Origin: an uncultured Candidatus Saccharibacteria bacterium | Lineage (GTDB): Bacteria; Patescibacteriota; Saccharimonadia; Saccharimonadales; AWTP1-31 | Length of the DNA: 55,566 nt | Direction: 5' to 3' | Assembly: GCA_903946795.1 (NCBI GenBank) | Contig: CAJAXB010000073.1 | Coordinates: 1-55,566, forward strand | Part shown: positions 2 to 55,437 of the stretch, in pieces | Layout of the letters: every line of letters begins with the position of its first letter | Position numbering within the stretch: position 1 is the stretch's first letter | The notes under the pieces: generated by a model | What the model saw: only the letters and a program-made list of their open reading frames with translations | Databases searched by the model: none | What the model was told of the DNA's origin: nothing | Made by a program: the position numbers and the translations under genes

Positions 2-994
2 TCAAACAACGATCTTCACATAGGAAACTATCTTGGAGCGTTAATGCCGATCATTAATATGCAGGTACAGCACGCAAAAGACTCAACAATACATCTTTTC
101 GTTCCTGACTTGCATAGTTTCACGACGCCCATAGATCACAGTGTGTTTTATGAGCAAACCATCAATAACCTACGCATTTATGTTGCTGCAGGACTCGATC
201 TCGATGATCAAAGTACGCATATATACAGACAGAGCTTTATTCCGGCTCACTCAGAACTGACTATCATTCTTAACTGCTTTAGCCATATGGGTGAACTTAA
301 TCGTATGACTCAGTTCAAAGAAAAAGCAGACAATAAACCAAACATTAGCGTTGGCCTATTCGATTATCCAGTACTTATGGCAAGTGATATTTTGCTCTAC
401 GACGCGAAATACGTACCCGTTGGAGCAGACCAATCACAGCATCTAGAGTTAACGAGAGATATTGCAATTCGCATGAATAATAAATTTGGTGAGCTATTCA
501 CTGTTCCTGAACCAGAAGAAGTCCAAGCTAAGTTTGCAAACCAAACAGGACGCCTGCGTATTCGTGATCTCATTAATCCTGAAAAGAAAATGAGTAAATC
601 AGATGAAACAGGTAAAGGAGTTATATTCCTGACAGACGATCCAGAAGTTGCTGCCAAGAAAGTAATGGGTGCAACAACAGATAGCTTTGGTGAAATCCGC
701 TATGACAAGAAGGAGCGTCCTGGAATAAGTAACCTGCTTGATATTCTCGCAGCTTTCAGTGATCGCAGTATTGAAGACGTAGTCAAAGAATATGATGGAC
801 AGACACAATATAGACCACTAAAGTCAGCAGTTTCTGATGCAGTGCGTACATTTCTCGCTGACTTCCAAAGCCGTATGTCGAGTATTGATGACAGCGTCAT
901 TCTGAATAAACTTGAATCAAGTGAAAAACTCATGAATGAAATTGCTAACAAAAAACTACTGAATGTCCAAAAAGCCATAGGCTTACGATCATGA
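2..994 (+). CDS. trpS: Tryptophan--tRNA ligase (class I), 5' end runs off the window
   Basis: The ORF-track Met at 44 is internal. The same frame is open back to nt 2 and encodes SNNDLHIGNYLGAL, with the HIGH-type signature HIGN at 17-28. KMSKS is present verbatim (EKKMSKSDE). The GADQSQHLELTRDIAIRMN block is typical of TrpRS. The stop overlaps the next start (ATGA at 991-994). Confidence 0.9.
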   Translation, partial: SNNDLHIGNYLGALMPIINMQVQHAKDSTIHLFVPDLHSFTTPIDHSVFYEQTINNLRIYVAAGLDLDDQSTHIYRQSFIPAHSELTIILNCFSHMGELNRMTQFKEKADNKPNISVGLFDYPVLMASDILLYDAKYVPVGADQSQHLELTRDIAIRMNNKFGELFTVPEPEEVQAKFANQTGRLRIRDLINPEKKMSKSDETGKGVIFLTDDPEVAAKKVMGATTDSFGEIRYDKKERPGISNLLDILAAFSDRSIEDVVKEYDGQTQYRPLKSAVSDAVRTFLADFQSRMSSIDDSVILNKLESSEKLMNEIANKKLLNVQKAIGLRS

Positions 995-1857
995 GGCAAC
1001 ACTTCACCGCAACTGAAGCCTCTCGGCTTGACGTCTTTGTCGTGCAGTCTATTCCTGATGCCAGTAGATCATTTGCCAGTTCACTGTGCGATCAAGGCAA
1101 GGTATCAATAAACGGAGTTGTGACGTATAAGACCTCTGCAAAGGTTAAAACAGGTGACAAAATCGAAATTGAATTTGATAAAAAGCTTGCTGATACTATT
1201 CCAGAAATCTCACTTGAAATTCTTTATGAAGACGACGATTGCATTGTAATCATAAAGCCAGAAGGGGTATTAACGCATTCAAAAGGAGCATTTAACCCAG
1301 AAGCAACAGTATCTTCCTTCATTCGTCCTTACACCATAGGCATGCAAGATAACCGGGGAGGAATAGTACACAGACTAGACCGCGTCACGTCTGGAGTGCT
1401 GATTTGTGCAAAGCACGAGAAAGCACTTGAGTGGCTACAGCAACAATTTGCAGACCGTAAAGCTAAAAAAGAGTACATTGCAGTAGTAGAAGGAGTTCCA
1501 GAGACTCTTGAGGCTACAATAGAAATGCCTATTGAACGCAATCCAAAAAAGCCGCAGACCTTCCGAGTAGGCCCAAATGGCAAAAAGGCTGAAACGTACT
1601 ACAAAGTACTCAAACATACAGCCGATTATAGCCTCGTTGATTTAAAGCCTGTTACGGGACGTACGCACCAGTTGCGTGTGCATATGCAACAAATAGGCCA
1701 TCCTATTGTTGGAGACGTTCTCTATGGTGCACAGCCAGCCGATAGGACATATCTGCATGCGCACTCATTAACGATTACTATTCCAAGTGGCGAAACAAAG
1801 ACGTTCACTGCAGCCGTGCCATCAAGCTTTAATGACCGCGTAGACTCTCATGGCTAA
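991..1857 (+). CDS. RluA-family 23S rRNA pseudouridine synthase with N-terminal S4-like domain
   Basis: Catalytic motif HRLDRVTSGVLICAK and the GRTHQLRVHM block are present. The start overlaps the trpS stop by 4 nt. Confidence 0.85.
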   Translation: MRQHFTATEASRLDVFVVQSIPDASRSFASSLCDQGKVSINGVVTYKTSAKVKTGDKIEIEFDKKLADTIPEISLEILYEDDDCIVIIKPEGVLTHSKGAFNPEATVSSFIRPYTIGMQDNRGGIVHRLDRVTSGVLICAKHEKALEWLQQQFADRKAKKEYIAVVEGVPETLEATIEMPIERNPKKPQTFRVGPNGKKAETYYKVLKHTADYSLVDLKPVTGRTHQLRVHMQQIGHPIVGDVLYGAQPADRTYLHAHSLTITIPSGETKTFTAAVPSSFNDRVDSHG

Positions 1858-20520: not shown

Positions 20521-20550
20521 TTGACAAAACAGCGGTAAATACCGTAAAAT
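20521..20550 (+). promoter_or_regulatory. Near-consensus sigma-70 promoter for rplJ-rplL
   Basis: TTGACA, an 18-nt spacer, then TAAAAT. Confidence 0.6.
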
Positions 20551-20556
20551 AAGCCT

Positions 20557-20727
20557 ATCGTTACCAAAGACAGTGGCAGCCATTAGGCTTAATACGCTAC
20601 CGAGGTAGAAACAACTTGTTTCATGCTTTGATCAAATGTCTTTGGATAGTACGTCCAAAGACATTTTGTTTTTAAGCGGTAACGTGTCAAATAGGTCGAT
20701 TTGACTAAAAATCTAAGAGGAGCCAAC
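20557..20727 (+). promoter_or_regulatory. rplJ 5' leader with an intrinsic-terminator attenuator (L10-leader-like)
   Basis: The leader is about 170 nt. A perfect 13-bp hairpin (aaatgtctttgga/tccaaagacattt, 20634-20666) is followed by tgttttt and ends 55 nt upstream of the rplJ ATG. Helices are possible upstream (aagcct 20551-20556 with aggctt 20585-20590). Confidence 0.55.
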
Positions 20728-24242: not shown

Positions 24243-26609
24243 ATGGACAACAAGCAGCCAATCATACCGCCACAGAATACCGATGCTGAAGCCAGCCTAC
24301 TTGGCGCTATTCTTATTGACTCTGATGCGATTGTAAAAATAGCAGATATAATTTCTCCGACGGACTTTTATGATGAGCGAAACGGCCGTATATACGAAGC
24401 TATTACGCAACTGTACGAAAAACATAGTCCAATTGATGTGCTTACTTTATCTGACCAGCTTAAAAGCAGTGGATTTATCGATTTTGTCGGGGGAGCAGCC
24501 TACTTAACACAGCTTACCAACTTCGTACCAACAGCCGCTCATGTTGAGCAATATGCAGAAATAGTCTCCCAAAAAGCAATCCGTAGGCGCTTAATCCAGG
24601 TAGCACAAGAAACTGTAACGCTAAGCTACAACGAAGAGCGAAATTTACAAGAGCTTATTGAAGAAGCTGAAACACGGCTTTTTGAAGTTAGTCAAAAACA
24701 CGTAAAACAAGACATAGCGAGCGTTGAATCAGTTTTAAGCGAAAGTTTTGATCGATTAGATGAATTACACAAAGACAAAGGTAAGCTTCGAGGAATCCCT
24801 ACTGGCTTTAAGGATCTCGATAACATATTAGCTGGTTTACAGCGATCCGACCTCTTTATTTTAGCTGCTCGACCTTCTATGGGTAAAGCTCAGCCGCTGG
24901 ATGCTCCAATATTAAAGAAGGATGGCTGGACAACCATGGGAGATCTTAAAATCGGGGACTCGCTTGCATCTATTGACGGCAAAGCATCAAAAGTAATTGG
25001 CATCTTCCCTCAAGGTAAAAAGCAAATATATAGACTGACATTTTCAGACGGTCGCAGTGTCGAAGCAACGGGCGATCACTTGTGGCGTGTGAATTTCCGA
25101 AAATGGGCTCAACCAAAAATACTTACGACGGACGCGCTTATTGAACTACTTGATAAAACACAGTATAAAAAGCGACTATGGATCGATCAGTTTAACGGAA
25201 AGTTCGGTTCAAACAAGAAACTTCCAATAAACCCCTGGGTCCTTGGAATGCTTCTTGGCGATGGAGATTTGCACCATCTACGCGTTTCAACTGCCGAAAA
25301 GTCTGTAGTTTCAAAACTCAAGAAAGAGCTTGGGTCGAACTACGAAGTAAAGTATGCCGGTAAATATGACTACCGGGTTATTAGTCCTACGACAAGGAAT
25401 AATCCTTTGCGTGATACACTACGTCGCATTGGTCTTTGGAATCTCAGTAGTCATGAAAAATTTGTGCCAGAACAATACCTTAACGCGTCGTTGACCGATC
25501 GCATTGCTCTTTTACAAGGACTCATGGATGCAGATGGTTGGGTAGAAAAACATGGAACAGTCAGGTTCTCATCTTCCAGTGAACAGCTTGCTCGTGATGT
25601 CGTAACATTAGCTAGGTCACTTGGGGCTTGGGTTAGCATTAAAAAGAAGCAGCCATTTTTTACTTACAAGAATATACGTAAGCAGGGGCTACCTGCATAT
25701 GTGGTCAATATCGTATATGATAATCCAAAAGCGCTCTTTACGATTCGAGCTAAAAAAGCTCGCGCCAAAACAATGACCAGACAAAAGCGACTTACATTTG
25801 CGAGTATTACGCCAACGAGAAAGGCAGAAGCGCAGTGTATAGCAGTATCTCATCCGGAACACTTGTATATTTCGGAAAACTTTACTGTAACTCATAACAC
25901 AGCATTTTCACTCGGTTTAGCTCACAGTATTGCACTCAAAGCTAAAGAACCGGTACTTATATTTAGTCTTGAAATGAGTAAGGAACAGTTGGTTGACCGA
26001 ATGCTAGCCACTGAATCAGGTGTTGATGCATGGGCTCTACGAACTGGAAATCTGACGGACAGCGACTTTGAAAAAATCGGTCATGCTATGGGATCGTTGT
26101 CTGAAGCCCAGATCTTTATTGATGATACCCCAGGTATAACAGTGAGTGACCTACGAACAAAAGCACGTCGAGAAGCACATATTCGTCCACTCGGACTTAT
26201 AATTGTTGACTACTTACAGCTCATGAGTGGTGGATCACGTTTTGCATCAGATGGTAACCGTGTACAGGAAATTTCAGCAATATCACGAGGTCTCAAGGGA
26301 ATAGCCAGGGAGCTTAATGTGCCTCTTATTGCGCTCAGTCAGTTGAGCCGTAGTGTTGAAAGCCGCACGCCTCAAATTCCGCAGTTGCAGGACCTTCGTG
26401 AATCAGGTTCGATTGAGCAAGATGCCGACGTGGTAGCATTCTTGTATCGAGAGGATTACTACAATCCGGAGTCTGAACGTAAAAACATTATGGATATTTT
26501 TATCAAGAAACATCGTAATGGACCTACTGGCGCAGTTGAACTGTACTTTGACCGTGAAAAACAACGTTTTAGAAGTGTCGACACTCGCCATAGCGATCCG
26601 TTTGCCTAA
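24243..26609 (+). CDS. dnaB: Replicative DNA helicase DnaB, interrupted in the Walker A loop by a 337-aa intein
   Basis: N-domain PPQNTDAEASLLGAIL and linker GIPTGFKDLDN. Walker A is split as AARPSMGK / TAFSLGLA. RecA-fold motifs: IIVDYLQLM, SRGLKGIARELNVPLIALSQLSR and IEQDADVV. The exteins sum to 451 aa. Confidence 0.95.
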   Translation: MDNKQPIIPPQNTDAEASLLGAILIDSDAIVKIADIISPTDFYDERNGRIYEAITQLYEKHSPIDVLTLSDQLKSSGFIDFVGGAAYLTQLTNFVPTAAHVEQYAEIVSQKAIRRRLIQVAQETVTLSYNEERNLQELIEEAETRLFEVSQKHVKQDIASVESVLSESFDRLDELHKDKGKLRGIPTGFKDLDNILAGLQRSDLFILAARPSMGKAQPLDAPILKKDGWTTMGDLKIGDSLASIDGKASKVIGIFPQGKKQIYRLTFSDGRSVEATGDHLWRVNFRKWAQPKILTTDALIELLDKTQYKKRLWIDQFNGKFGSNKKLPINPWVLGMLLGDGDLHHLRVSTAEKSVVSKLKKELGSNYEVKYAGKYDYRVISPTTRNNPLRDTLRRIGLWNLSSHEKFVPEQYLNASLTDRIALLQGLMDADGWVEKHGTVRFSSSSEQLARDVVTLARSLGAWVSIKKKQPFFTYKNIRKQGLPAYVVNIVYDNPKALFTIRAKKARAKTMTRQKRLTFASITPTRKAEAQCIAVSHPEHLYISENFTVTHNTAFSLGLAHSIALKAKEPVLIFSLEMSKEQLVDRMLATESGVDAWALRTGNLTDSDFEKIGHAMGSLSEAQIFIDDTPGITVSDLRTKARREAHIRPLGLIIVDYLQLMSGGSRFASDGNRVQEISAISRGLKGIARELNVPLIALSQLSRSVESRTPQIPQLQDLRESGSIEQDADVVAFLYREDYYNPESERKNIMDIFIKKHRNGPTGAVELYFDREKQRFRSVDTRHSDPFA
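24888..25898 (+). mobile_element. Intein (Ala1; class-3-type W-C-T signature) carrying a LAGLIDADG homing endonuclease domain
   Basis: Starts with AQPLDAPILKKDGWTTMGDL straight after GK and ends in FTVTHN before the +1 Thr. Block B is TGDHLW. Block F has Cys (AQCIAV). Two LAGLIDADG-type motifs are present: LGMLLGDGDL and LQGLMDADGW. Confidence 0.85.
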
Positions 26610-39737: not shown

Positions 39738-40426
39738 TCACTTTGCTTCCAATTGTTGACTATATTGACCAGTTTAGTTTTTGCATAATCTAAAGTAGAA
39801 TTATTTAATATAGTATGATGAGCATGGTTCTTGATTCCATGTAAACCCATGGCAACTTCATCGTCCAATATCTTTCTAAAATCTTCATGACTAAGATTAC
39901 TAAGATTTTCTCGAGATTTATAACGATCGTATAGTGTCTCATAGTGTGCATCAATGTACACAATTTTGTGATCAGAAGGTTCAATTGCGTCTAGGATAAA
40001 TTCTATGCCTTTTAGCGATCTACTACCTACAAGAATAAGACCATTGGTCGGAGCACTGTTATAACTTGGTTGTATTTCATTTACAAGTAGCTCATCTGTA
40101 AAGTTATCGCCATAGATAGCCTCCTTGCCCATAATCCACCTGCCTAAGCTTAAACCCGAATAAGCTTTCCTATGACTTTCCCTTATTATAGGACCAAGGT
40201 CGTGTATAGCATGTTCAGATGAATTAAAGCCAGAGTGTACAACCGCACTTTTTCCTGATGCGTGAGGACCTGTAACGAAAAGTAGTCTGCGTGAGTTCCA
40301 TTCTGAAAGTTCTGAGTTATCTATAGCGACTTCTGTATTCGCATCCTTGTTGATATCTAAAGGTACAATATATCTCGCTTCTTGATCATATGTTTCGTTG
40401 GGGTTTTTAGGCTCTAGTTCACTCAT
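39734..40426 (-). CDS. P-loop nucleoside/nucleotide-kinase-like protein; last gene of the six-gene operon
   Basis: Walker A FVTGPHASGKSAV, Walker-B-like LILVGSRS, and a lid-like YDRYKSRE. A ~45-aa acidic N-terminal extension. It overlaps the upstream gene by 8 nt. Confidence 0.6.
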   Translation of the reverse strand: MSELEPKNPNETYDQEARYIVPLDINKDANTEVAIDNSELSEWNSRRLLFVTGPHASGKSAVVHSGFNSSEHAIHDLGPIIRESHRKAYSGLSLGRWIMGKEAIYGDNFTDELLVNEIQPSYNSAPTNGLILVGSRSLKGIEFILDAIEPSDHKIVYIDAHYETLYDRYKSRENLSNLSHEDFRKILDDEVAMGLHGIKNHAHHTILNNSTLDYAKTKLVNIVNNWKQSD

Positions 40427-41507
40427 ATTCTTTTAACTCTACTATATACTTTTCATTATGGATAATAGCATCATATGTTTCGAGACCTACATTTTTAAAA
40501 ATTGAGCTTACATAGTTTACATCCCTGGTGAGGGCAAAAAATCCAGGCCCCACAGATGATAAAGAGAGAATATCAAATTTTTCGCTAGTATTATAGTCTT
40601 GTAGTTTTGAGGCAATATCATTCATTGGAGGGTATACAAACGAACAGTTCTTTATACTGCCCATTTTCCATCTATAATCAAAGATTAAATTTTTCGCTTT
40701 TTCCAGATTTCCAAACGCTAAGTCCGGTAATACATCATGTAACATCCTATACGCGATTGTTTTTGAATAAATTTTTCCAGTACGACTAAATCCGTCCATA
40801 TTCTCTTCTTCTTTTTTTAATAAGAGTTCAGAATCAGGATGCGTAAAGTTCTTAGGTACACCAATGACGACGTGATATTCTTTAGGCAATGAAACAGTTG
40901 CTATTGGCGTAGCTTCACCCGCTAAAACGATTAAACCTCCTACAAAGTTGCCACAAACTGCTGAACCACCTAAGCATTGCACTGGTGTTAAATTATTATG
41001 ATCTTTCTTGATTTCTTCTCCATGATTTTGCGCACAATATCTACTAATATCTATAGGGCTCATAGGTAAATCATAAATCTCATTTATTGCTGTAGCTACA
41101 CTTGCTATGGTTGCACTACTAGACCCTAGCCCGCAATGCCGCAAGTCGAGATCAGTTTCCACCTTCACATTAAGACTATCGGAAAAATTTAATGCCTTTC
41201 GCATGATTATACAGGCGTGTAAAATGAGCGGCTTTCGACTTGAAGTAGCATCAATATGTATGTTCTTTTTACCATCTTTAACAATTTCAATGGTTACTGT
41301 TTTATAAATTCCGACGCAAAAGTCAATTTGACCAGCTTTGTATACAAGATTGTTGTTAGATGTAATTTTAGAGGGATCCAGCGCCATTGCCTCTAAGCGT
41401 GAGGGGTACCGAATGACAATTTTCTTGTATTTGGGCGTGGCTTTTAGCGTTTTAGAATACGGGTTAAACACGGTTCCTACTGGAAATTTTTTAAAATTTG
41501 TTTTCAT
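40419..41507 (-). CDS. GHMP-kinase-superfamily protein resembling beta-ribofuranosylaminobenzene-5'-phosphate (beta-RFAP) synthase / C-glycoside synthases
   Basis: The N-terminal YPSRLEAMALDPSKI resembles the PSR[IL]H..L.DL motif I recall for the MptG family. It does not match the N-motifs of Gal, mevalonate or homoserine kinases. GHMP motif II-like HCGLGSSSATIASVATAI is present. It overlaps the upstream gene by 17 nt. Confidence 0.5.
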   Translation of the reverse strand: MKTNFKKFPVGTVFNPYSKTLKATPKYKKIVIRYPSRLEAMALDPSKITSNNNLVYKAGQIDFCVGIYKTVTIEIVKDGKKNIHIDATSSRKPLILHACIIMRKALNFSDSLNVKVETDLDLRHCGLGSSSATIASVATAINEIYDLPMSPIDISRYCAQNHGEEIKKDHNNLTPVQCLGGSAVCGNFVGGLIVLAGEATPIATVSLPKEYHVVIGVPKNFTHPDSELLLKKEEENMDGFSRTGKIYSKTIAYRMLHDVLPDLAFGNLEKAKNLIFDYRWKMGSIKNCSFVYPPMNDIASKLQDYNTSEKFDILSLSSVGPGFFALTRDVNYVSSIFKNVGLETYDAIIHNEKYIVELKEYE

Positions 41508-42564
41508 GCTCAGTTAATTCTTCTATCATGGATTCAGTCTTAAAGAGTAAGTGATCTAAGATCGTTGGTTTAAATGATCCACTACCTACTGAATCGTGAG
41601 ATCTAATTTTAAAATTATTATCTGCAACCCGTTTATGAGGATAACGAAATTTACGAATTGCCTTCAATGTTGAAGCTAATGTTTCATTAATTACTAAATT
41701 ATTAATGTTTCTTGAAAAAGTCAGTATACTTGTGTCGTTATTTTTCCTACTAAAGGATTGGATTAATTGACGCTGGTTAAAGTCAAGATACTCAATATTT
41801 TCAGTGAAATAGTCTTGGTACACATCATCCTTATTGTCTAGACCCCAAATCATCCTTTCAATACTCAATAACTGCATTTGGGCACCGCCTGCTCCCATGA
41901 ATTGACGACCATTGATGGTTAAAGGTTCAAAATATGGACGAAGAATGTTTGTGAAAAAACTTGGGCTGACGCTTCGATGGACGTCAACGATAGATTGAGT
42001 AGCCACATTACATCCTCGTGCTACTTCTTCAAGTGCGCTGGAGATTTCAATTACAGAACTTTTTTCAAATGAAACATCGCTTAGTATATTTGATGAGACC
42101 TCAAGTGCTAAAGAGGATTGCTTAACGGCGCTTATGAATCTCTTTTCTTCATTTGAACCCGTAAATGTTCTTAATCTATCGTTGGCTGGGTTTGCCAGGC
42201 CGTATGTATATACAGTACCCCGAGGTATCGTTTGCGCTCGTAAGGCCAGCCTTACTAGAGAATGGCCTAACTTTTTTGTAGATTGAAGTGGATCTATGTT
42301 GTGACGCAATAACGATGAAGCAAGAAAATCGAGATCCCTTAAAGCAGCGACGGCGTCAGTGTCGGTAATTTTATCGGTAATTTCATCATAGTTTGAAATG
42401 GCAATATCAAGACTTAATTGTATAGAATCGGTATCACCGCTAAGATTCTGCTCAGGCAATGCAGCAATGTAACTATCAAGACTAAGGGGGTCTTTTTCAG
42501 AGATTACATTATAGAACTGAATTGATGGTAATAATTGCTCATGCGTTATCATATTGTTATGCAT
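41491..42564 (-). CDS. Tryptophan-2,3-dioxygenase-superfamily-like (heme-dependent aromatic oxygenase-like) protein
   Basis: ILRPYF...GAGGAQMQLLSIERMIWG parallels TDO FR..L.PASGFQS.QFR..E...G. FRYPHKRVADNNFKIRSHDSVGSGS parallels WR..H..MV.R.IG...GTGGSSG, which includes the proximal-His position. Confidence 0.45.
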   Translation of the reverse strand: MHNNMITHEQLLPSIQFYNVISEKDPLSLDSYIAALPEQNLSGDTDSIQLSLDIAISNYDEITDKITDTDAVAALRDLDFLASSLLRHNIDPLQSTKKLGHSLVRLALRAQTIPRGTVYTYGLANPANDRLRTFTGSNEEKRFISAVKQSSLALEVSSNILSDVSFEKSSVIEISSALEEVARGCNVATQSIVDVHRSVSPSFFTNILRPYFEPLTINGRQFMGAGGAQMQLLSIERMIWGLDNKDDVYQDYFTENIEYLDFNQRQLIQSFSRKNNDTSILTFSRNINNLVINETLASTLKAIRKFRYPHKRVADNNFKIRSHDSVGSGSFKPTILDHLLFKTESMIEELTEHENKF

Positions 42565-49282: not shown

Positions 49283-50818
49283 TTATTTCGTTATTTTCAA
49301 TTTACCAGAGCTTCGCAATCCATGAAGAATACTTTGCCTGAAGTATTTAAATTCAGATGACTTATAAAATGTCGCTGTCAGTATAAGACCAGTTACTGTT
49401 ATGCATGAAATACTTTTTAGCAGCAAAGTTAACAATGCATATTTAGAATTAATATTTATACTTAAAATATAATTTATTGAAACAATTAAAGCAGTGGCCA
49501 GTAACTGGGTAAAAAAAGTTTGATAATATTTCATTGATCTTTTTTTAAATAATACTTTGTAAACGTATTTTGGGTAACTGTATAAATGTAGGAAGAGAAT
49601 ACTTAGCATCGTTCCCAAAAAGACACCTGAAAGCCCAAAAAATTTAACAAAAATTATTGAAAAAATTAAATTAATAAAGGCTTCAATTACTGGCATGTAT
49701 CTATCTTCATGAAAAATACCAGTGGCATCTTTAAAGCTCATAATCGGAGCTCTCATTAATGTAAGATATAGGTTAATCGTGAGTACAACAAGAACCACCT
49801 CTGATAGTAGAAATTGCTTACCGAGCCATAAAGCAACAAACCCTTGCATTAGAATAAAAAATAACGAAGTAACAAAAACGCTTAAGCAATACACTGCAAA
49901 ATTTATTCGCTGATAAACAATTAATGCCCGCTTACTGGATTGAACCATCATATTGCCCACGCTAGAGGTTACGGCATTTGCTGTTTGACCAAAAACAAGA
50001 ACTAAAGCAGCAATCACTAAATAATAATTACTGTAAAGCCCAACAGCACTTATGCCAAGGAAAAAAGCAATTACAATATTATCAGTATTAAGAACTGCAT
50101 AGCTTGCAAACTTATGAAATGATAGCCCCTTGATGCTTTTAACAATGTTATTTCGCGTTACTAAATCTAATTTCTTAACGTTCTTTTCTGTAATGTAAGG
50201 ATATTTTTTAGCAGTTAATAGGCTCAATATTAGATTCTCGACTATTCGCATAACTATCTTGATACCTAGGTATAGGTAAAAATTATTTGTTAAAATTAAT
50301 ATAGCGATTTGGCAGAGATTGAGTGCAATCATATAGATTACATGGATTATATCGATTAGGTATTGTTTTTGATCTGCATAAAGTAATGATCGCTTATAAA
50401 TTAAATAGTACGAAAGTATCGCATCTAATAAAAATAGGTAATAGATCAATACAATGTTTTCATTAATATTTTGTGATCCTACATACCTATACACAAAAGC
50501 TGATGAGATAATTCCAATAATACCAATCACTAAAGCAACAAGCCTATAGGTTTTCTTATAGAAGCCAACTAGAGATTTTACTTTCTCATGGTCGTTGTTG
50601 TGCATTGGCTTATATAGCTGATAATAAATTGCACTGCCTAGGCCTAATTCGGCTATGCCTAGCATTGCAACAAGGTTTGATATAAGCCCGTTTATGCCAA
50701 GATATTTCACTCCAAGCGTATTAACAAAAATACGCTGTGCAAAAAGTCCAATTGTAATTATTAGAGCATTTGACAACAAAGCAATCAATATATTTTTTTT
50801 GGCAGCTCTTGTCCTCAT
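49283..50818 (-). CDS. Wzx-type oligosaccharide flippase (MOP superfamily)
   Basis: About 12-14 TM helices with the typical N-terminus ..KKNILIALLSNALIITIGLFAQRIFVNTLGVKYLGINGL. The ATG at 50818 is preferred; the alternative is 50851. Confidence 0.75.
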   Translation of the reverse strand: MRTRAAKKNILIALLSNALIITIGLFAQRIFVNTLGVKYLGINGLISNLVAMLGIAELGLGSAIYYQLYKPMHNNDHEKVKSLVGFYKKTYRLVALVIGIIGIISSAFVYRYVGSQNINENIVLIYYLFLLDAILSYYLIYKRSLLYADQKQYLIDIIHVIYMIALNLCQIAILILTNNFYLYLGIKIVMRIVENLILSLLTAKKYPYITEKNVKKLDLVTRNNIVKSIKGLSFHKFASYAVLNTDNIVIAFFLGISAVGLYSNYYLVIAALVLVFGQTANAVTSSVGNMMVQSSKRALIVYQRINFAVYCLSVFVTSLFFILMQGFVALWLGKQFLLSEVVLVVLTINLYLTLMRAPIMSFKDATGIFHEDRYMPVIEAFINLIFSIIFVKFFGLSGVFLGTMLSILFLHLYSYPKYVYKVLFKKRSMKYYQTFFTQLLATALIVSINYILSININSKYALLTLLLKSISCITVTGLILTATFYKSSEFKYFRQSILHGLRSSGKLKITK

Positions 50819-50822
50819 TGCT

Positions 50823-51914
50823 TTACAATTGTCCTGTATATAGGCGCTCAACGCTATGAATAGTTATATTAATATCGTGATTGCTTTCTTTAAGATTTAT
50901 ATCTTTCTGCGGAAGAACCCTTGGAGCAATCAGCTCAACCCAGCATTCAGGACCAGCGTCTATACTTATAAATTTAGTGCTTGTAAGCAACTTTGTTGAC
51001 CGATCAATTCTATCGCTAAATATACATTTTAATCCGTTAGCCTGGGCCTCGATTGCAGCAACCGGTACGCCCTCCCAAAATGAAGGCATAATAAAAACAT
51101 CCATGGCGCTATACAGTGGTGCAACATTATCTGATTTACCATAAAATATGATATTATTTTGTAATTTCATATTCTTAGCCTGAATATATACCGACTCGCG
51201 AAGTACTCCGTCTCCTACTAGCAGTAGTTTAATATCTTTTCCGATAGATTTTGAATACTGTAATAATTCAAGCATAAAATTATGGTTTTTAACTTTTTCG
51301 ATTCTTCCAACATTACCAACTAATATAGTATTTTTATCTAGTCCAAGTTTTTTTCTAATGTCTTTTCTGTTTTGTTCACTAAACCTAAAGGTGTCTGTAT
51401 TTATGCTGTTGGGTATAATCGTATAATAATTATTTCCAAAAAGTGAAAGTCCGGCTTGATTACCACATGATACTTTTATGTTAGAAAATATATTAATTAA
51501 ATACTTCGATATTATTATATATATGCGCCGGCTGATTTGCTGGTTAGCTTCATTTTTTGCAGTATGAGAATGTGCAATTCTTAAAGGAACTTGCATAATT
51601 TTTGCTACTCCTAATGGGAGGAATGAACTTAGATATGTATGTGTCTCAACAACATCTATATTTTCTTTTTTAATAATCTCTCTTATTTTATTAGCATAGG
51701 ATAAGATATTTCTTATATTTAAAGCACCAATTTTATACATACTAAAACCTAGTGATATGATTTCTTGCTCATAGTCGTATACTATATTGTCGTGACAAAC
51801 GAAAATGAGATTAAATTTAGATTTATCAATACGCCTTGCTATATTGATCAAGTAGGTCTCGCTTCCTCCTCGGTTCATACCGCCAATAATTAATAGTACG
51901 TTATTTTTTTTCAT
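50823..51914 (-). CDS. Glycosyltransferase family 4
   Basis: N-terminus VLLIIGGMNRGGSETY. The C-domain reads PSFWEGVPVAAIEAQANGLKCIFSD. Confidence 0.8.
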   Translation of the reverse strand: MKKNNVLLIIGGMNRGGSETYLINIARRIDKSKFNLIFVCHDNIVYDYEQEIISLGFSMYKIGALNIRNILSYANKIREIIKKENIDVVETHTYLSSFLPLGVAKIMQVPLRIAHSHTAKNEANQQISRRIYIIISKYLINIFSNIKVSCGNQAGLSLFGNNYYTIIPNSINTDTFRFSEQNRKDIRKKLGLDKNTILVGNVGRIEKVKNHNFMLELLQYSKSIGKDIKLLLVGDGVLRESVYIQAKNMKLQNNIIFYGKSDNVAPLYSAMDVFIMPSFWEGVPVAAIEAQANGLKCIFSDRIDRSTKLLTSTKFISIDAGPECWVELIAPRVLPQKDINLKESNHDINITIHSVERLYTGQL

Positions 51915-52752
51915 AGTCGATATACTTATTTAAATAATCGTATTTATCTTTATTATCTTGACCCAGTACAAATCTTGCCCTATAAGACCGTACGAATATT
52001 ACAGGAAGTAATCCTGCAATTATTGACTTAGCGATTTTTAGATAATCAAATATGCTAGCTTTTAATTTAGGAAAATATATTAGTTTTGCTTTAATCTCGT
52101 ATTTACGCGCTCTCAGGCTTCTTTTCTTATAGTCTAAAGGATTGACCCTGTAAAGGAACAATACTTCATCAATACAGTAAAGCTTTCCTTTATTTAATAA
52201 AATATCACTCCATAGAACAAAATCTTGGGATCTACGATAGTCTTTATACATTCCAATCTTAGTTAACGTTGACCTTTTAATAATGGTTGATGCGTGAACA
52301 AGCATATCGCCGTTAATAATGTTCTTCTCTGTTTTTTCACCGGGAGACCCTATAGACCCATGCATTGTATTATCACTAAACTCAACTGCTAAACTACCGA
52401 CAGCATCATATTGAGGGTTTTCTTCTATGAACTTATAAATTTTTTCTATTCTATCAACAGTACAAAGATCATCTGTGTCCATCCGAACTATGTATTTTCC
52501 TTGAGCTATCTTTATGCCCTCATTTAGAGCTAACGCAAAGCCCATATTTTTATCGTTACGAACAACTCTAATTCTATTATCATTAAATTCTCTAATAATA
52601 CTATTAATATTATTTATGCCATTATCGTCAACTATTATTATTTCAAAGTCCTGAAAGGTTTGATTAATAATTGATTTTATAGCTTGAATAAGATACTCCC
52701 GCTTTGTGTTAAACTCTGCCATTACAACTGAAACTTTTATATTATTTTTCAT
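51901..52752 (-). CDS. Glycosyltransferase family 2
   Basis: VSVVMAEFNTKREYLIQAIKSIINQTFQDFEIIIVDDNG and the DxD-type RMDTDD. Confidence 0.85.
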   Translation of the reverse strand: MKNNIKVSVVMAEFNTKREYLIQAIKSIINQTFQDFEIIIVDDNGINNINSIIREFNDNRIRVVRNDKNMGFALALNEGIKIAQGKYIVRMDTDDLCTVDRIEKIYKFIEENPQYDAVGSLAVEFSDNTMHGSIGSPGEKTEKNIINGDMLVHASTIIKRSTLTKIGMYKDYRRSQDFVLWSDILLNKGKLYCIDEVLFLYRVNPLDYKKRSLRARKYEIKAKLIYFPKLKASIFDYLKIAKSIIAGLLPVIFVRSYRARFVLGQDNKDKYDYLNKYIDYEKK

Positions 52753-54196
52753 TTTCTATATTTCCGTTTCTATTTATGTATTTATACACAATGTAAATTG
52801 CTAATGTAGGAATCATTATTGTATATACGTATTTTCTTATAACAAAAAGTGATGTATCCCTCGCCAAAAATAAAAAGTTATAAATAGCCACAGCAATAAA
52901 TATATTTTTTATTGATTTATCATCTGAATTTTTTTTACCATTACTAAATACATTAATAATAAAAATACCTAGTATGAGAATTGAAACAATTCCAAAAAAG
53001 CCAAAATTATAGTAAGACTCTGCAACTATAGTAAAACCCGGTCCGTAGTTCAAATTTAGCTTAAGCTTCAACCAATTTGCTAAAGCAGCGTCATTTGCAA
53101 ATGAATATCCGGCAAACATTATTCTTGGAAAAATAGCTAAGATTGATGCAAGGTATGTATAGCCATAGCTATAACTCTTCTGAAGTGGCACTAAATCTAT
53201 TGTGTTATACAATGAAAATATGTTAAACCCGTATTCAATAAAAATATTTCTAACTGGCTCCAATAAGCTTTTTGGACTCAAAAGAATATTAATAAACATA
53301 GAAAAAGTACGTTCATTGGAAGCACGAAATAACGCAATAGCGTTTGACGTTTGTGCTACAATTAGGAAAATTGGAACAACTAATAAGCGATTAATCTTTA
53401 TTTTATTAATCTCGGCACTATAGAGCCAAATATAAGCAATCAGAATTCCGATTACTTCTCCTCTAGCGCCAATATAAAGTGAAGTTAAACAAATTAAAAG
53501 TAGCGCGCACGATAAAATTCTTCTAAGATTTTTGTTGTTCTTATTGGCTATCAGAAGCATAAAAATACCTGGTACAAAAAGCATCGAAAGTGCACTAAGT
53601 AGCGAAGAACTACTGTTAGATTCAAGCGGCATTTCGTATATTGCTTTATAGCCGTACTTGTTGGCAAGCGTCAACTGAGTAATCTTAGAGCCAACATAAG
53701 CTGATGCCCCAATTCCAGCCATTGCAAGTCCTACAATGTTTACACTTTTGAACTTGTAGAGGTTAACGACTTTTTTATGTGCATTATCATGATTAATGTT
53801 TTTAATTTTATATAGACCCAATCCACACAAAATATAAAAAGATGCTATTGAATAAAGCAATGTGTGCAGGTAAATGTTAGGTTTAAATTCACTAATTGTT
53901 AATTGCTTGAGAATTTCTGGCTGAAGAGAAAGAATTATTGACTGACCAAACCAGCATATAAATACACCTATAATAAAAAAGTTGTAAGGGTGCATTAATG
54001 ACTTTCTACGAGCTATTTCAACTATATAAACTACCATAATAAAGCATGCGAGAGTACTGTAAATTTGACTTTGTAAAACAAGAGGCTGAATCGGCTGCAA
54101 TGCAAATGATGCGATAAATATCGCAGGTATAATGAATAGATAAAGAATACTTAAAATAATATTAAAATATTTTACTGAATTTAACTTAGATAGCAT
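52742..54196 (-). CDS. Wzy-type O-antigen/polysaccharide polymerase-like membrane protein
   Basis: About 12 TM helices, very AT-rich, no close motif. It sits between glycosyltransferases in a Wzx-containing locus. Confidence 0.55.
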   Translation of the reverse strand: MLSKLNSVKYFNIILSILYLFIIPAIFIASFALQPIQPLVLQSQIYSTLACFIMVVYIVEIARRKSLMHPYNFFIIGVFICWFGQSIILSLQPEILKQLTISEFKPNIYLHTLLYSIASFYILCGLGLYKIKNINHDNAHKKVVNLYKFKSVNIVGLAMAGIGASAYVGSKITQLTLANKYGYKAIYEMPLESNSSSSLLSALSMLFVPGIFMLLIANKNNKNLRRILSCALLLICLTSLYIGARGEVIGILIAYIWLYSAEINKIKINRLLVVPIFLIVAQTSNAIALFRASNERTFSMFINILLSPKSLLEPVRNIFIEYGFNIFSLYNTIDLVPLQKSYSYGYTYLASILAIFPRIMFAGYSFANDAALANWLKLKLNLNYGPGFTIVAESYYNFGFFGIVSILILGIFIINVFSNGKKNSDDKSIKNIFIAVAIYNFLFLARDTSLFVIRKYVYTIMIPTLAIYIVYKYINRNGNIENEK

Positions 54197-54198
54197 GG

Positions 54199-55437
54199 CT
54201 ATTTTGAAGACCTTCTAGATAAACGTTTCGTGTTATGTTTTTCTGTTAATTCAGAGAGCATAGCACTTTGCAGGTCAAGTTTCCGGTTATTACTAAGGTG
54301 AGCATCACTTTGCAGTGTAAGTGCATTAGAATATTGGGTTGCCATAAAATTAATTACATTTGGTATTGAAAACTTTGAAGCAAAATAATGTCTTTTAGCA
54401 GATTGCCCATTGCAGCTATTGATAGCTGTTTTTTGTAGAATTGAAATATAATCATCAATCTTATCATAAGGATAGAACGAGCCAAGATATTTTTCTTGTA
54501 ATATTTCTATATGTCCCCGGTTTTTTGAAATAGCAACTGGGATACCCGAAGCTAGTTCTTCAACGATGCTTAGACCAAAACCTTCACGGATACTGGCTGA
54601 TACGCCAATATCGCTCATCCTCATGAGTTTATGAATATCTTTTCGATAGCCCATCAGTAAAACACTGTGTTCAAGATCTAATTCAATAATATATTTTCTA
54701 TATCGTTCTTCGTAATCACCGATACCACATATCAGAAGTTTTGCTTTGGGATTAATTTTCAATACCTCCCGCATTGCTCGCATAAGGAATCCCTGATTTT
54801 TATTTTTGTTTAGCTCAGCTACACAGATCAAGATTAAGTCATCTTTGTGAAAACCGTATTCTCGCCGGAGTTGGTCTTTCTCTTTTTGATCGTGAACAGG
54901 ACGAAACCTTTTTAGATCAACTCCAACTCCATTAGTCTTTATGATATTTTTTGCACGCAGCTTTTTCTGGGCTCTCATATAGTCTTCTTCATTTATCGTG
55001 ACGAGTACATCAGTAATATGCGCTAATATTTTTTCTACAGGGTAGTAAATAATCCAATTCTGTATTGGTGCTCCAGTATAGAAATGGAAACCATGCGCAG
55101 TATAGAAAACTATTGTTCCAGTCTTTTTACGAGAAGATCGAGCAGCAAGCCTAGTAACGACACTTCCCATAGGGGTATGGGTATGAATAATCTCGAATTT
55201 TTCAATATCGATTATTTTTTTCAGTTGCCTAATTGCTTTTAGGTTATTGAATTTGAAAGGGCTGCGTTCAAAAGACACAGTATGTTTAACGTCACAGTAT
55301 GGTATTTTTTCTGTTCCATTCGTAGCTACATGGACTTCATAGCCTTGATCCTTGAAATATTTAAGGTAGGGAATATGAAAGTTAAGGATATGTGAATCTA
55401 CGGTCGCACTGAATAGTACTTTCTTTTTCGATTTCAT
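54199..55437 (-). CDS. Glycosyltransferase family 4
   Basis: KVLFSATVDSHILNFHIPYLKYFKDQGYEVHV (WbuB/GT4-like N-terminus) and REGFGLSIVEELASGIPV. Confidence 0.8.
   Translation of the reverse strand: MKSKKKVLFSATVDSHILNFHIPYLKYFKDQGYEVHVATNGTEKIPYCDVKHTVSFERSPFKFNNLKAIRQLKKIIDIEKFEIIHTHTPMGSVVTRLAARSSRKKTGTIVFYTAHGFHFYTGAPIQNWIIYYPVEKILAHITDVLVTINEEDYMRAQKKLRAKNIIKTNGVGVDLKRFRPVHDQKEKDQLRREYGFHKDDLILICVAELNKNKNQGFLMRAMREVLKINPKAKLLICGIGDYEERYRKYIIELDLEHSVLLMGYRKDIHKLMRMSDIGVSASIREGFGLSIVEELASGIPVAISKNRGHIEILQEKYLGSFYPYDKIDDYISILQKTAINSCNGQSAKRHYFASKFSIPNVINFMATQYSNALTLQSDAHLSNNRKLDLQSAMLSELTEKHNTKRLSRRSSK

Follow-up and report, generated by a model that had tools for sequence, protein, structure and literature searches.

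Class 3 inteins occur in helicase-like proteins, mostly at the ATPase P-loop (PMC2807308), and splice through a branched thioester at a block F Cys; splicing by this route is lost in the C320A mutant of the mycobacteriophage Bethlehem intein (PMC2807308) and in the C118A mutant of the Mycobacterium smegmatis DnaB intein, DnaBi1 (PMC6195587). The mycobacterial class 3 inteins at the DnaB-b site, which lies between the invariant Walker A Lys and the next Ser or Thr of DnaB (PMC6195587), are mini-inteins that lack an endonuclease (PMC6195587, PMC5050341). Here we describe an insert in the DnaB helicase encoded by a 55,566-nucleotide stretch of DNA (positions 1 to 55,566 of contig CAJAXB010000073.1, assembly GCA_903946795.1; hereafter the window). 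The host is a Saccharimonadales bacterium. Our analysis makes it very probable that the insert is a full-length class 3 intein at the DnaB-b site, consisting of a Hedgehog/intein (HINT) splicing domain and a nested homing endonuclease, and that the helicase depends on its splicing; the element may still spread by homing, and was probably gained long ago.

The insert lies in frame between the Lys and the Thr of the Walker A motif (AARPSMGK/intein/TAFSLG; slashes mark junctions), which is the DnaB-b site, and its excision joins ...AARPSMGK to TAFSLGLA... to give a DnaB of 451 residues. Because the junction residues differ on the two sides (K/A and N/T) and more than 70 homologous, intein-free dnaB genes run continuously through GK/T or GK/S at this point, the boundary of the intein is unambiguous. 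A preliminary description of the window had placed a 337-residue insert at 24888-25898 in the Walker A loop of DnaB. These coordinates and the 451-residue remainder proved exact, and the motifs that it quoted were all found in their places, with the key codons checked singly: TGDHLW, LLGDGDL, LMDADGW, AQCIAV and TVTHN start at residues 61, 122, 212, 315 and 333, respectively (intein numbering throughout, with Ala1 as the first residue of the insert). The first residue after the insert, Thr+1 (codon ACA), is the Thr of the Walker A motif and, at the same time, the predicted nucleophile for splicing. A second known DnaB intein site, RESG/SIEQDAD, is uninterrupted.

The host protein is a DnaB equivalog by the NCBIfam model TIGR00665 (552.7 bits versus a cut-off of 385.25, residues 9-779), and its Pfam matches to DnaB (1e-33) and DnaB_C (3e-97, in two stretches) flank matches to LAGLIDADG_3 (2e-08) and Hom_end (9e-07). 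When used alone, the insert matched the intein portions of several intein-containing NCBIfam equivalog models. The identical 788-residue protein is present on at least eight contigs, and the three contigs compared, from three ENA assemblies, had 0 nucleotide differences across dnaB, ruling out an assembly artefact.

The residues that determine the intein class were then located in the insert. Residue 1 is the non-nucleophilic Ala1 (codon GCT), and Trp66 (B:12) stands two residues past the block B His, His64 (B:10). In standard inteins Asp is the usual residue at F:4; here the position is occupied by Cys317. Thr335 (G:5) is followed by His336 and the terminal Asn337. The non-nucleophilic first residue and the Trp, Cys and Thr at these positions make the insert a member of class 3 by the definition of Tori et al. 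(2010), which we adopted. The preliminary description had pointed to a Thr two residues before the terminal HN as the class 3 Thr. A Thr is indeed present at G:5, but it is T335, directly before HN, and not T333; among 44 full-length relatives, position 333 is variable (I, T or V) and position 335 is invariant.

Alignments to described inteins gave the same assignment. The solved structures that best matched the insert by sequence were 6bs8 (M. smegmatis, E 1.1e-10) and 6rix and 6riy (M. chimaera), and gp41-1 and PI-SceI ranked after these class 3 DnaB inteins. Residues 3-68 aligned to residues 3-69 of 6bs8, with the Ala start on the Ala start and gdHLW on aqHQW. In block F, AQCIAVSHPEHLY aligned to VRCVEVDNPEHLY of 6bs8, so that aeaQCIAVSHPEHLY lay on vpvRCVEVDNPEHLY, C317 was the equivalent of the block F Cys118, and vTHN lay on pTHN. 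BLASTP against the intein of Bethlehem gp11 gave a full-length match (E 2e-26, 25% identity) that placed H64, W66, C317, T335 and N337 on His65, Trp67, Cys320, Thr339 and Asn341, with C317 on the Cys of VKCIGI. These Bethlehem residues are B:10, B:12, F:4, the Thr of the triplet and the terminal Asn, and Cys320 is absolutely required for splicing (PMC2807308). In the alignments to Bethlehem and 6bs8 the Cys, Trp and Thr do occupy F:4, B:12 and G:5, and every sequence-level test, including the residue alignments to Bethlehem, 6bs8, 6rix and 6riy, agreed with the earlier reading of the insert as an endonuclease-bearing (LAGLIDADG) intein of the Trp-Cys-Thr type, class 3. The insert is a class 3 intein with a LAGLIDADG homing endonuclease, to which the splicing chemistry is assigned by homology.

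An intein that starts with Ala could also splice by the class 2 (KlbA-type) route, where the +1 residue itself makes the attack on the N-terminal junction and no block F thioester is formed; Ala1 is shared with the KlbA inteins, but those have Asp at F:4 where this intein has Cys (PMC2807308). The Trp-Cys-Thr triplet is complete here and nearly invariant in the family, and every one of the nearest homologues for which a structure or biochemical data exist belongs to class 3. In addition, the attacking residue would have to be Thr+1, and Thr is a weaker nucleophile than Cys or another thiol. Class 2 membership was rejected on the Cys at F:4 in place of Asp and the complete triplet, and we regard the class 2 route as very unlikely.

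The 788-residue precursor cannot assemble a normal P-loop and would be without normal ATP binding until the intein is excised; the helicase should therefore be active only after splicing. In the class 3 mechanism that we propose, the thiol of Cys317 (F:4) would first attack the Lys(-1)-Ala1 bond, aided by His64 and Trp66, to form the block F branched thioester. The N-extein would next be transferred to the hydroxyl of Thr+1, and cyclization of Asn337, aided by His336 and Thr335, would release the intein. An O-to-N shift would finally restore the GK-T peptide bond and yield the 451-residue DnaB. These steps have been demonstrated for the Bethlehem intein (PMC2807308) and for M. smegmatis DnaBi1 (PMC6195587). 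The endonuclease would cut intein-free dnaB at PSMGK/TAFSLG, and repair would copy the element into the cut allele. For the window intein, we infer from these comparisons that it splices, that it needs Cys317 to do so and that its endonuclease is active.

The endonuclease domain contains two LAGLIDADG motifs, LGMLLGDGD and LLQGLMDADG, each with an acidic residue of the catalytic position at its end (Asp125 and Asp216, respectively), as is expected of this endonuclease family, in which the two motifs are set in an alpha-beta-beta-alpha-beta-beta-alpha core. Pfam matches were above the cut-offs for both LAGLIDADG_3 (34.8-37.2 bits versus 22.5) and Hom_end (29.4-30.2 bits versus 21.1). A phmmer alignment to PI-SceI placed K191 on Lys301 and D216 on Asp326, which are catalytic residues of PI-SceI. 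Among the top 150 relatives, K191 was conserved in 147, D216 in 146 and D125 in 105, and 38 of the 150 had Asn at the first catalytic acidic position.

An AlphaFold2 model of the intein, built from a 48-sequence family alignment, had a mean predicted local distance difference test (pLDDT) score of 96.8 and a predicted template modeling (pTM) score of 0.93. When the whole chain of the model was compared with PDB by Foldseek, it matched PI-SceI (template modeling (TM) score 0.72-0.74 on the query), TliVMA and PI-PfuI. The splicing domain matched the class 3 DnaB mini-inteins 6bs8, 6rix and 6riy (TM score 0.75-0.78 on the target), as well as the gp41-1, Prp8 and NpuDnaE inteins, and the endonuclease core matched I-DmoI. 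In this model the N- and C-terminal segments together are predicted to form the HINT fold.

The relatives at the same site are the mycobacterial DnaB-b mini-inteins, namely M. smegmatis DnaBi1 (6bs8), M. chimaera DnaB1 (6rix and 6riy) and the M. leprae DnaB intein, and a helicase intein of the Stx2a-converting phage record that we examined. The mycobacterial inteins share with the window intein the host protein, the insertion point, Ala1, the block B His and Trp, the F:4 Cys and the Thr-His-Asn end; however, they are about 139-145 residues long and have no endonuclease, whereas the window intein has 337 residues and a complete LAGLIDADG domain. M. smegmatis DnaBi1 further differs in having Asp rather than Thr at B:7 and Ser rather than Thr at +1. 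The window intein is the full-length, endonuclease-bearing counterpart of these mini-inteins. The phage intein lies in a DnaB-type helicase, a 797-residue 'DNA helicase' (BBL33594.1; LC487996.1, our record L086, 898..3291) of an Stx2a-converting phage of E. coli O157:H7. It is likewise full length, interrupts Walker A at the same GK/T position, includes a LAGLIDADG domain, is 38% identical to the window intein over 100% of the query, and carries the class 3 signature (AARPGMGK/AMALSEG...NHLW...CLCIMV...VTHN/TELALK), but its host is a distantly related phage or prophage helicase and the intein has additional cysteines. Other Stx2a phage records gave equivalent full-length matches.

The preliminary description had named the Bethlehem intein as a prototype at the same DnaB P-loop site, which is wrong: that intein interrupts the terminase large subunit outside the P-loop. 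It lies within the 903-residue gp11, with the junctions ...AAVSQDQ/PLALNTEV...ILTHN/TKNTF and no GK before it. Its site is TerL1-c, in a 'poorly conserved helix', and the P-loop sites of the terminase are TerL1-a and TerL1-b (Kelley et al. 2016, PMC5050341). The DnaB-like helicase of Bethlehem, gp62, has 273 residues and showed no sign of an intein, and was rejected as the host; a tblastn search with the window intein against Bethlehem nucleotides 30000-52000 found no match, and gp52 contains an unrelated Cys1 intein. The Bethlehem intein remains a useful comparison, with nearly the same size as the window intein (341 versus 337 residues), a LAGLIDADG endonuclease, the same catalytic residues and Thr+1; it is unlike it in sequence (25% identity), in host (terminase gp10/gp11 rather than DnaB) and in residue 1, which is Ala in the window intein and Pro in the Bethlehem intein (PMC2807308). 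PI-SceI (yeast VMA1), TliVMA and PI-PfuI share the two-domain fold, and in PI-SceI the second LAGLIDADG motif and the equivalents of Lys301 and Asp326 are conserved with the window intein. PI-SceI is a class 1 (Cys1) intein, however, with an extra DNA-recognition region, 454 residues and about 15% identity.

A word-indexed protein search with the insert alone found 174 relatives (best E 7.6e-138), which showed uniform junctions of the form ...GK/AQPLD...VTHN/T or .../S. An exhaustive search of 1.84 billion cluster representatives returned 19,794 of them at E <= 1e-3, of which 4,990 reached E <= 1e-30. The host proteins of the relatives were DnaB, PhoH, UvrD-like, AAA_24, RecA-like and SNF2 proteins, and most family members lie at GK/T or GK/S of DnaB, PhoH, UvrD or RecA-like ATPases. 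PhoH-like ATPases had two intein sites, one at Walker A (GK/A...) and one at FMRGR/AQPLD...THN/T (for example P0103, P0108 and P0110 among P0040-P0118). In the phage collection 644 records had a match, 299 of them mycobacteriophages. The family is very large and already recognized, and its class, insertion site, architecture and phage link are established.

The putative catalytic residues were nearly invariant in this family. A1, H64, W66, C317, I318, L326, T335 and H336 were invariant in the 44 full-length inteins, and H64 and W66 in all three sets of 44, 48 and 150 relatives. In the best 150 of the exhaustive search, the Trp was present in 150, the Cys in 149 and the Thr in 148, the +1 residue was Thr in 125 and Ser in 23 (148 of 150 together), and residue 1 was Ala in 121 of the 127 relatives in which it could be resolved. 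At least 72 of the 150 follow directly on an RPxxGK DnaB Walker A motif.

Cys317 is the only cysteine in the 788-residue precursor. Splicing of M. smegmatis DnaBi1 is inhibited by H2O2 (PMC6195587) and, reportedly, by zinc (PMC7360933); its redox trap, a disulfide wholly inside the intein in which the catalytic Cys118 takes part, depends on Cys48, which activity also requires (PMC6195587). The window intein might similarly act as a conditional switch, in which redox or metal action on the catalytic cysteine gates splicing and the supply of helicase. It has the same insertion site and class as DnaBi1 and has been retained over a long evolutionary time, but with Cys317 as the sole cysteine and Ala-Thr at B:6/B:7 an internal disulfide trap is impossible. 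A DnaBi1-like intramolecular redox trap was ruled out on this count, and a switch of any kind seems unlikely to us. The intein of L085, a related genome described below, likewise has a single cysteine. We also think it improbable that the intein gates the active helicase in an obligate-symbiont lineage, with Cys317 as both nucleophile and sensor of oxidants or metals, and/or is still homing among Saccharimonadales.

To place the intein in its lineage, we compared dnaB alleles of related genomes. Many genomes of Saccharibacteria and Saccharimonadales encode a DnaB that is 77-81% identical to the spliced extein, and every one of them is intein-free at GK/T. The host gene and the gene order around it point to Saccharibacteria/Saccharimonadales, and the earlier suggestion that the gene belongs to a minimal genome is reasonable. 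A single-protein scan of the genome collection returned only two loci. The closest intein-bearing relative, L085 (GCA_026395435.1, JAPLYT010000009.1), has its intein at the same site, with a C-extein 96.6% and an intein 61% identical to those of the window, and has the same gene order as the window, dnaX-dnaB-...-ybaB-recR-DHH-cysS. In the window the gap between the dnaX stop codon and the dnaB start is 3 nt, and the upstream open reading frame (ORF) has 484 residues with clamp-loader (DnaX, DNA polymerase III) domains, as read in the identical contigs. Another relative, L002, also has an intein at this site (extein 89.6%, intein 52.8% identical). The dnaB of L085 has been called as two genes (468..1109), the split being due to a frameshift that follows ...DELHKDKGKL in the N-extein; in the other frame the intein is intact together with its two junctions. 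The frameshift could reflect either a fault of the assembly or a true lesion.

Intein-free alleles were sought with a degenerate DNA pattern for PSMGK/TAFSLG, which located them in four additional genomes of Saccharibacteria as well as in contigs from metagenomes. Three of these genomes (L093, L095 and L098) and one metagenome contig (L091) have exteins 88-91% identical to that of the window and the identical empty site PSMGK/TAFSLGLAHSIALK; by sequence, these four empty sites are candidate cleavage substrates of the endonuclease. In a neighbor-joining tree of the ATPase domain, drawn without support values from about 268 columns over which the key taxa are 93-97% identical, the three intein-bearing alleles form one clade, sister to the empty L098, L093 and L095 clade. 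Among 79 other DnaB hosts, the inteins were 40-51% identical to that of the window and the exteins only 23-46%. That the inteins are closer than the exteins indicates horizontal spread between distant helicases.

In every pair, the proportion of synonymous differences (pS) had reached saturation (0.75-0.9), in the extein and in the intein alike. A comparison of vertical descent with re-invasion by synonymous divergence (dS) was rejected, as saturation prevents it from discriminating the two, and the ratio of the proportion of nonsynonymous differences (pN) to pS by domain was used instead, together with the extein tree. Between the inteins of the window and L085, pS was about 0.76 and pN was 0.23-0.28 across all three parts, with pN/pS of 0.30 in the N-terminal splicing part, 0.36 in the endonuclease and 0.34 in the C-terminal splicing part. 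These ratios, at saturated pS, indicate that the whole intein, the endonuclease included, has been under purifying selection over a long time. The simplest history suggested by these sequences is that the intein was acquired horizontally once, long ago, and has been passed on vertically since. Its source would have been a pool common to phage and other bacterial P-loop ATPases and its recipient the ancestor of a small Saccharimonadales subclade, in which it would then have been kept under purifying selection.

The same data bear on whether the gene is still functional. If the intein had decayed and no longer spliced, this dnaB would be a pseudogene or a non-functional paralogue. A second dnaB could lie outside the 55-kb window, and the N-extein frameshift of L085 would fit such decay. 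The 788-codon frame of the window is nevertheless intact with all catalytic positions kept, the extein is under very strong constraint (C-extein pN 0.044 versus pS 0.86), the dnaX-dnaB-ybaB-recR context is conserved and common to the relatives, and the identical sequence occurs in several assemblies. We consider decay highly improbable.

Whether the intein is still mobile, as the preliminary description had suggested that it may be, is a separate question. The data allow mobility, but the grouping of the three intein-bearing alleles in the tree also fits one old gain followed by vertical descent. The intein may splice while its endonuclease is inactive, and would then be a fixed, vertically inherited passenger of the subclade that is not currently mobile. 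Consistent with this, the three alleles form a single clade sister to an intein-free clade, as after a single old gain, the divergence of the intein tracks that of the extein (61% versus 96.6% in L085, 52.8% versus 89.6% in L002), the saturated synonymous sites imply long residence, and Asn at the first acidic position in 38 of 150 relatives suggests that loss of activity is common in the family. On the other hand, Asp125, Lys191 and Asp216 are all retained, constraint on the endonuclease domain matches that on the splicing parts (pN/pS 0.36 versus 0.30-0.34 against L085), neutral evolution of a dead domain over a time long enough for saturation would have left less than its 59.5% identity, and empty targets of the same protein sequence exist in sister species. 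An inactive endonuclease in a fixed intein is plausible, although short of probable, and is a live alternative on the question of mobility only.

Several observations weigh against the interpretation of the insert as a splicing, homing class 3 intein gained once. The assignment of the mechanism rests on homology at 25% identity to the Bethlehem intein and about 30% to the mycobacterial splicing domain. The Pfam Intein_splicing match, at 16.6 bits, is below its cut-off of 35.8, and the TIGR01445 match is also below its curated cut-off. Block B:6/B:7 (positions 60-61), close to the block B His, is Ala-Thr here; Cys-Cys is found at these positions in 62 of the top 150 relatives, and Cys at the two positions singly in 34 and 30 of the 44. 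No recent transfer was visible in the data examined, and the properties of the tree given above belong to the same side of the balance.

We searched the literature for inteins in connection with Saccharibacteria, Patescibacteria or the candidate phyla radiation (CPR), and found none described in the papers that the search covered. Recognition of the intein yields the correct 451-residue helicase and the correct Walker A motif. Automated annotation can mishandle intein-bearing genes: the dnaB of L085 was split in two, though that split follows the N-extein frameshift, and many database entries for relatives start at 'MGK/AQPLD'. The natural intein-free sister alleles are possible homing substrates, and the combination of a single cysteine and 337 residues may make this intein a clean test case for class 3 chemistry. 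Current understanding of the family, which has thousands of members and whose class, site and phage link are in the literature, is unchanged.

Table. Coordinates of the dnaB gene, its intein and other features of the window
Feature	Position	Strand	Remarks
dnaB precursor gene	24243..26609	+	788 residues and stop; ORF list, Pfam, TIGR00665
N-extein, 215 residues	24243..24887	+	DnaB N-terminal domain, linker and start of ATPase domain; ends with Walker A ...AARPSMGK, which continues as AARPSMGK/T... in intein-free relatives
Intein, 337 residues, AQPLD...FTVTHN	24888..25898	+	1011 nt; ORF residues 216-552
N-terminal splicing region, about residues 1-100	24888..25187	+	Blocks A and B; domain boundary approximate
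Ala1	24888-24890	+	Codon GCT
His64 (B:10)	25077-25079	+
Trp66 (B:12)	25083-25085	+
LAGLIDADG homing endonuclease domain, about residues 101-300	25188..25787	+	Pfam, phmmer, Foldseek
LAGLIDADG motif 1	25242-25268	+	LGMLLGDGD; Asp125 at its end
Lys191	25458-25460	+
LAGLIDADG motif 2	25509-25538	+	LLQGLMDADG; Asp216
C-terminal splicing region	25788..25898	+	Blocks F and G; Cys317, Thr335, His336, Asn337
Cys317 (F:4)	25836-25838	+
Thr335 (G:5)	25890-25892	+
His336	25893-25895	+
Asn337	25896-25898	+
C-extein, 236 residues and stop	25899..26609	+	DnaB_C match at residues 552-777
Thr+1	25899-25901	+	Codon ACA
Second known DnaB intein site	26397-26429	+	RESG/SIEQDAD
Ribosomal protein L1 ORF	10409..11359	+	L1 domain only at residues 121-309
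Tmk-ThyX ORF, 773 residues	16673..18994	+	Thymidylate kinase at residues 11-202
L10 leader	20546..20677	+	Rfam RF00557, 68 bits
GHMP-family kinase	40419..41507	-
PrnB/indoleamine-dioxygenase-like haem dioxygenase	41491..42564	-
Low-GC block	49283..55437	-	GC 0.29-0.34 versus 0.40 for the window

Other features of the window were also recorded. The 773-residue ORF fuses a thymidylate kinase to an unusually long ThyX/Thy1 region, with two Thy1 stretches that extend to about residue 770; a check of this ORF for a second intein gave no match to any family of inteins or endonucleases, even with the threshold relaxed to E <= 1. The ribosomal protein L1 ORF has a charged N-terminal extension of about 95 residues, rich in Lys, Glu and Ala (MAEKKEVTTPEE...), before the L1 domain; this extension falls at the AT-skew peak (0.29, at 10-11 kb) and is probably its cause. 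The Rfam L10 leader lies upstream of an rplJ-type ORF at 20701. The haem dioxygenase gene adjoins that of the GHMP-family kinase, a pairing that is unexpected for a reduced genome. The low-GC block encodes a glycosyltransferase of family 4 (GT4), one of family 2 (GT2), a Wzy-type O-antigen polymerase, another GT4 and a 521-residue ORF without a Pfam match, and looks like a surface-polysaccharide island.

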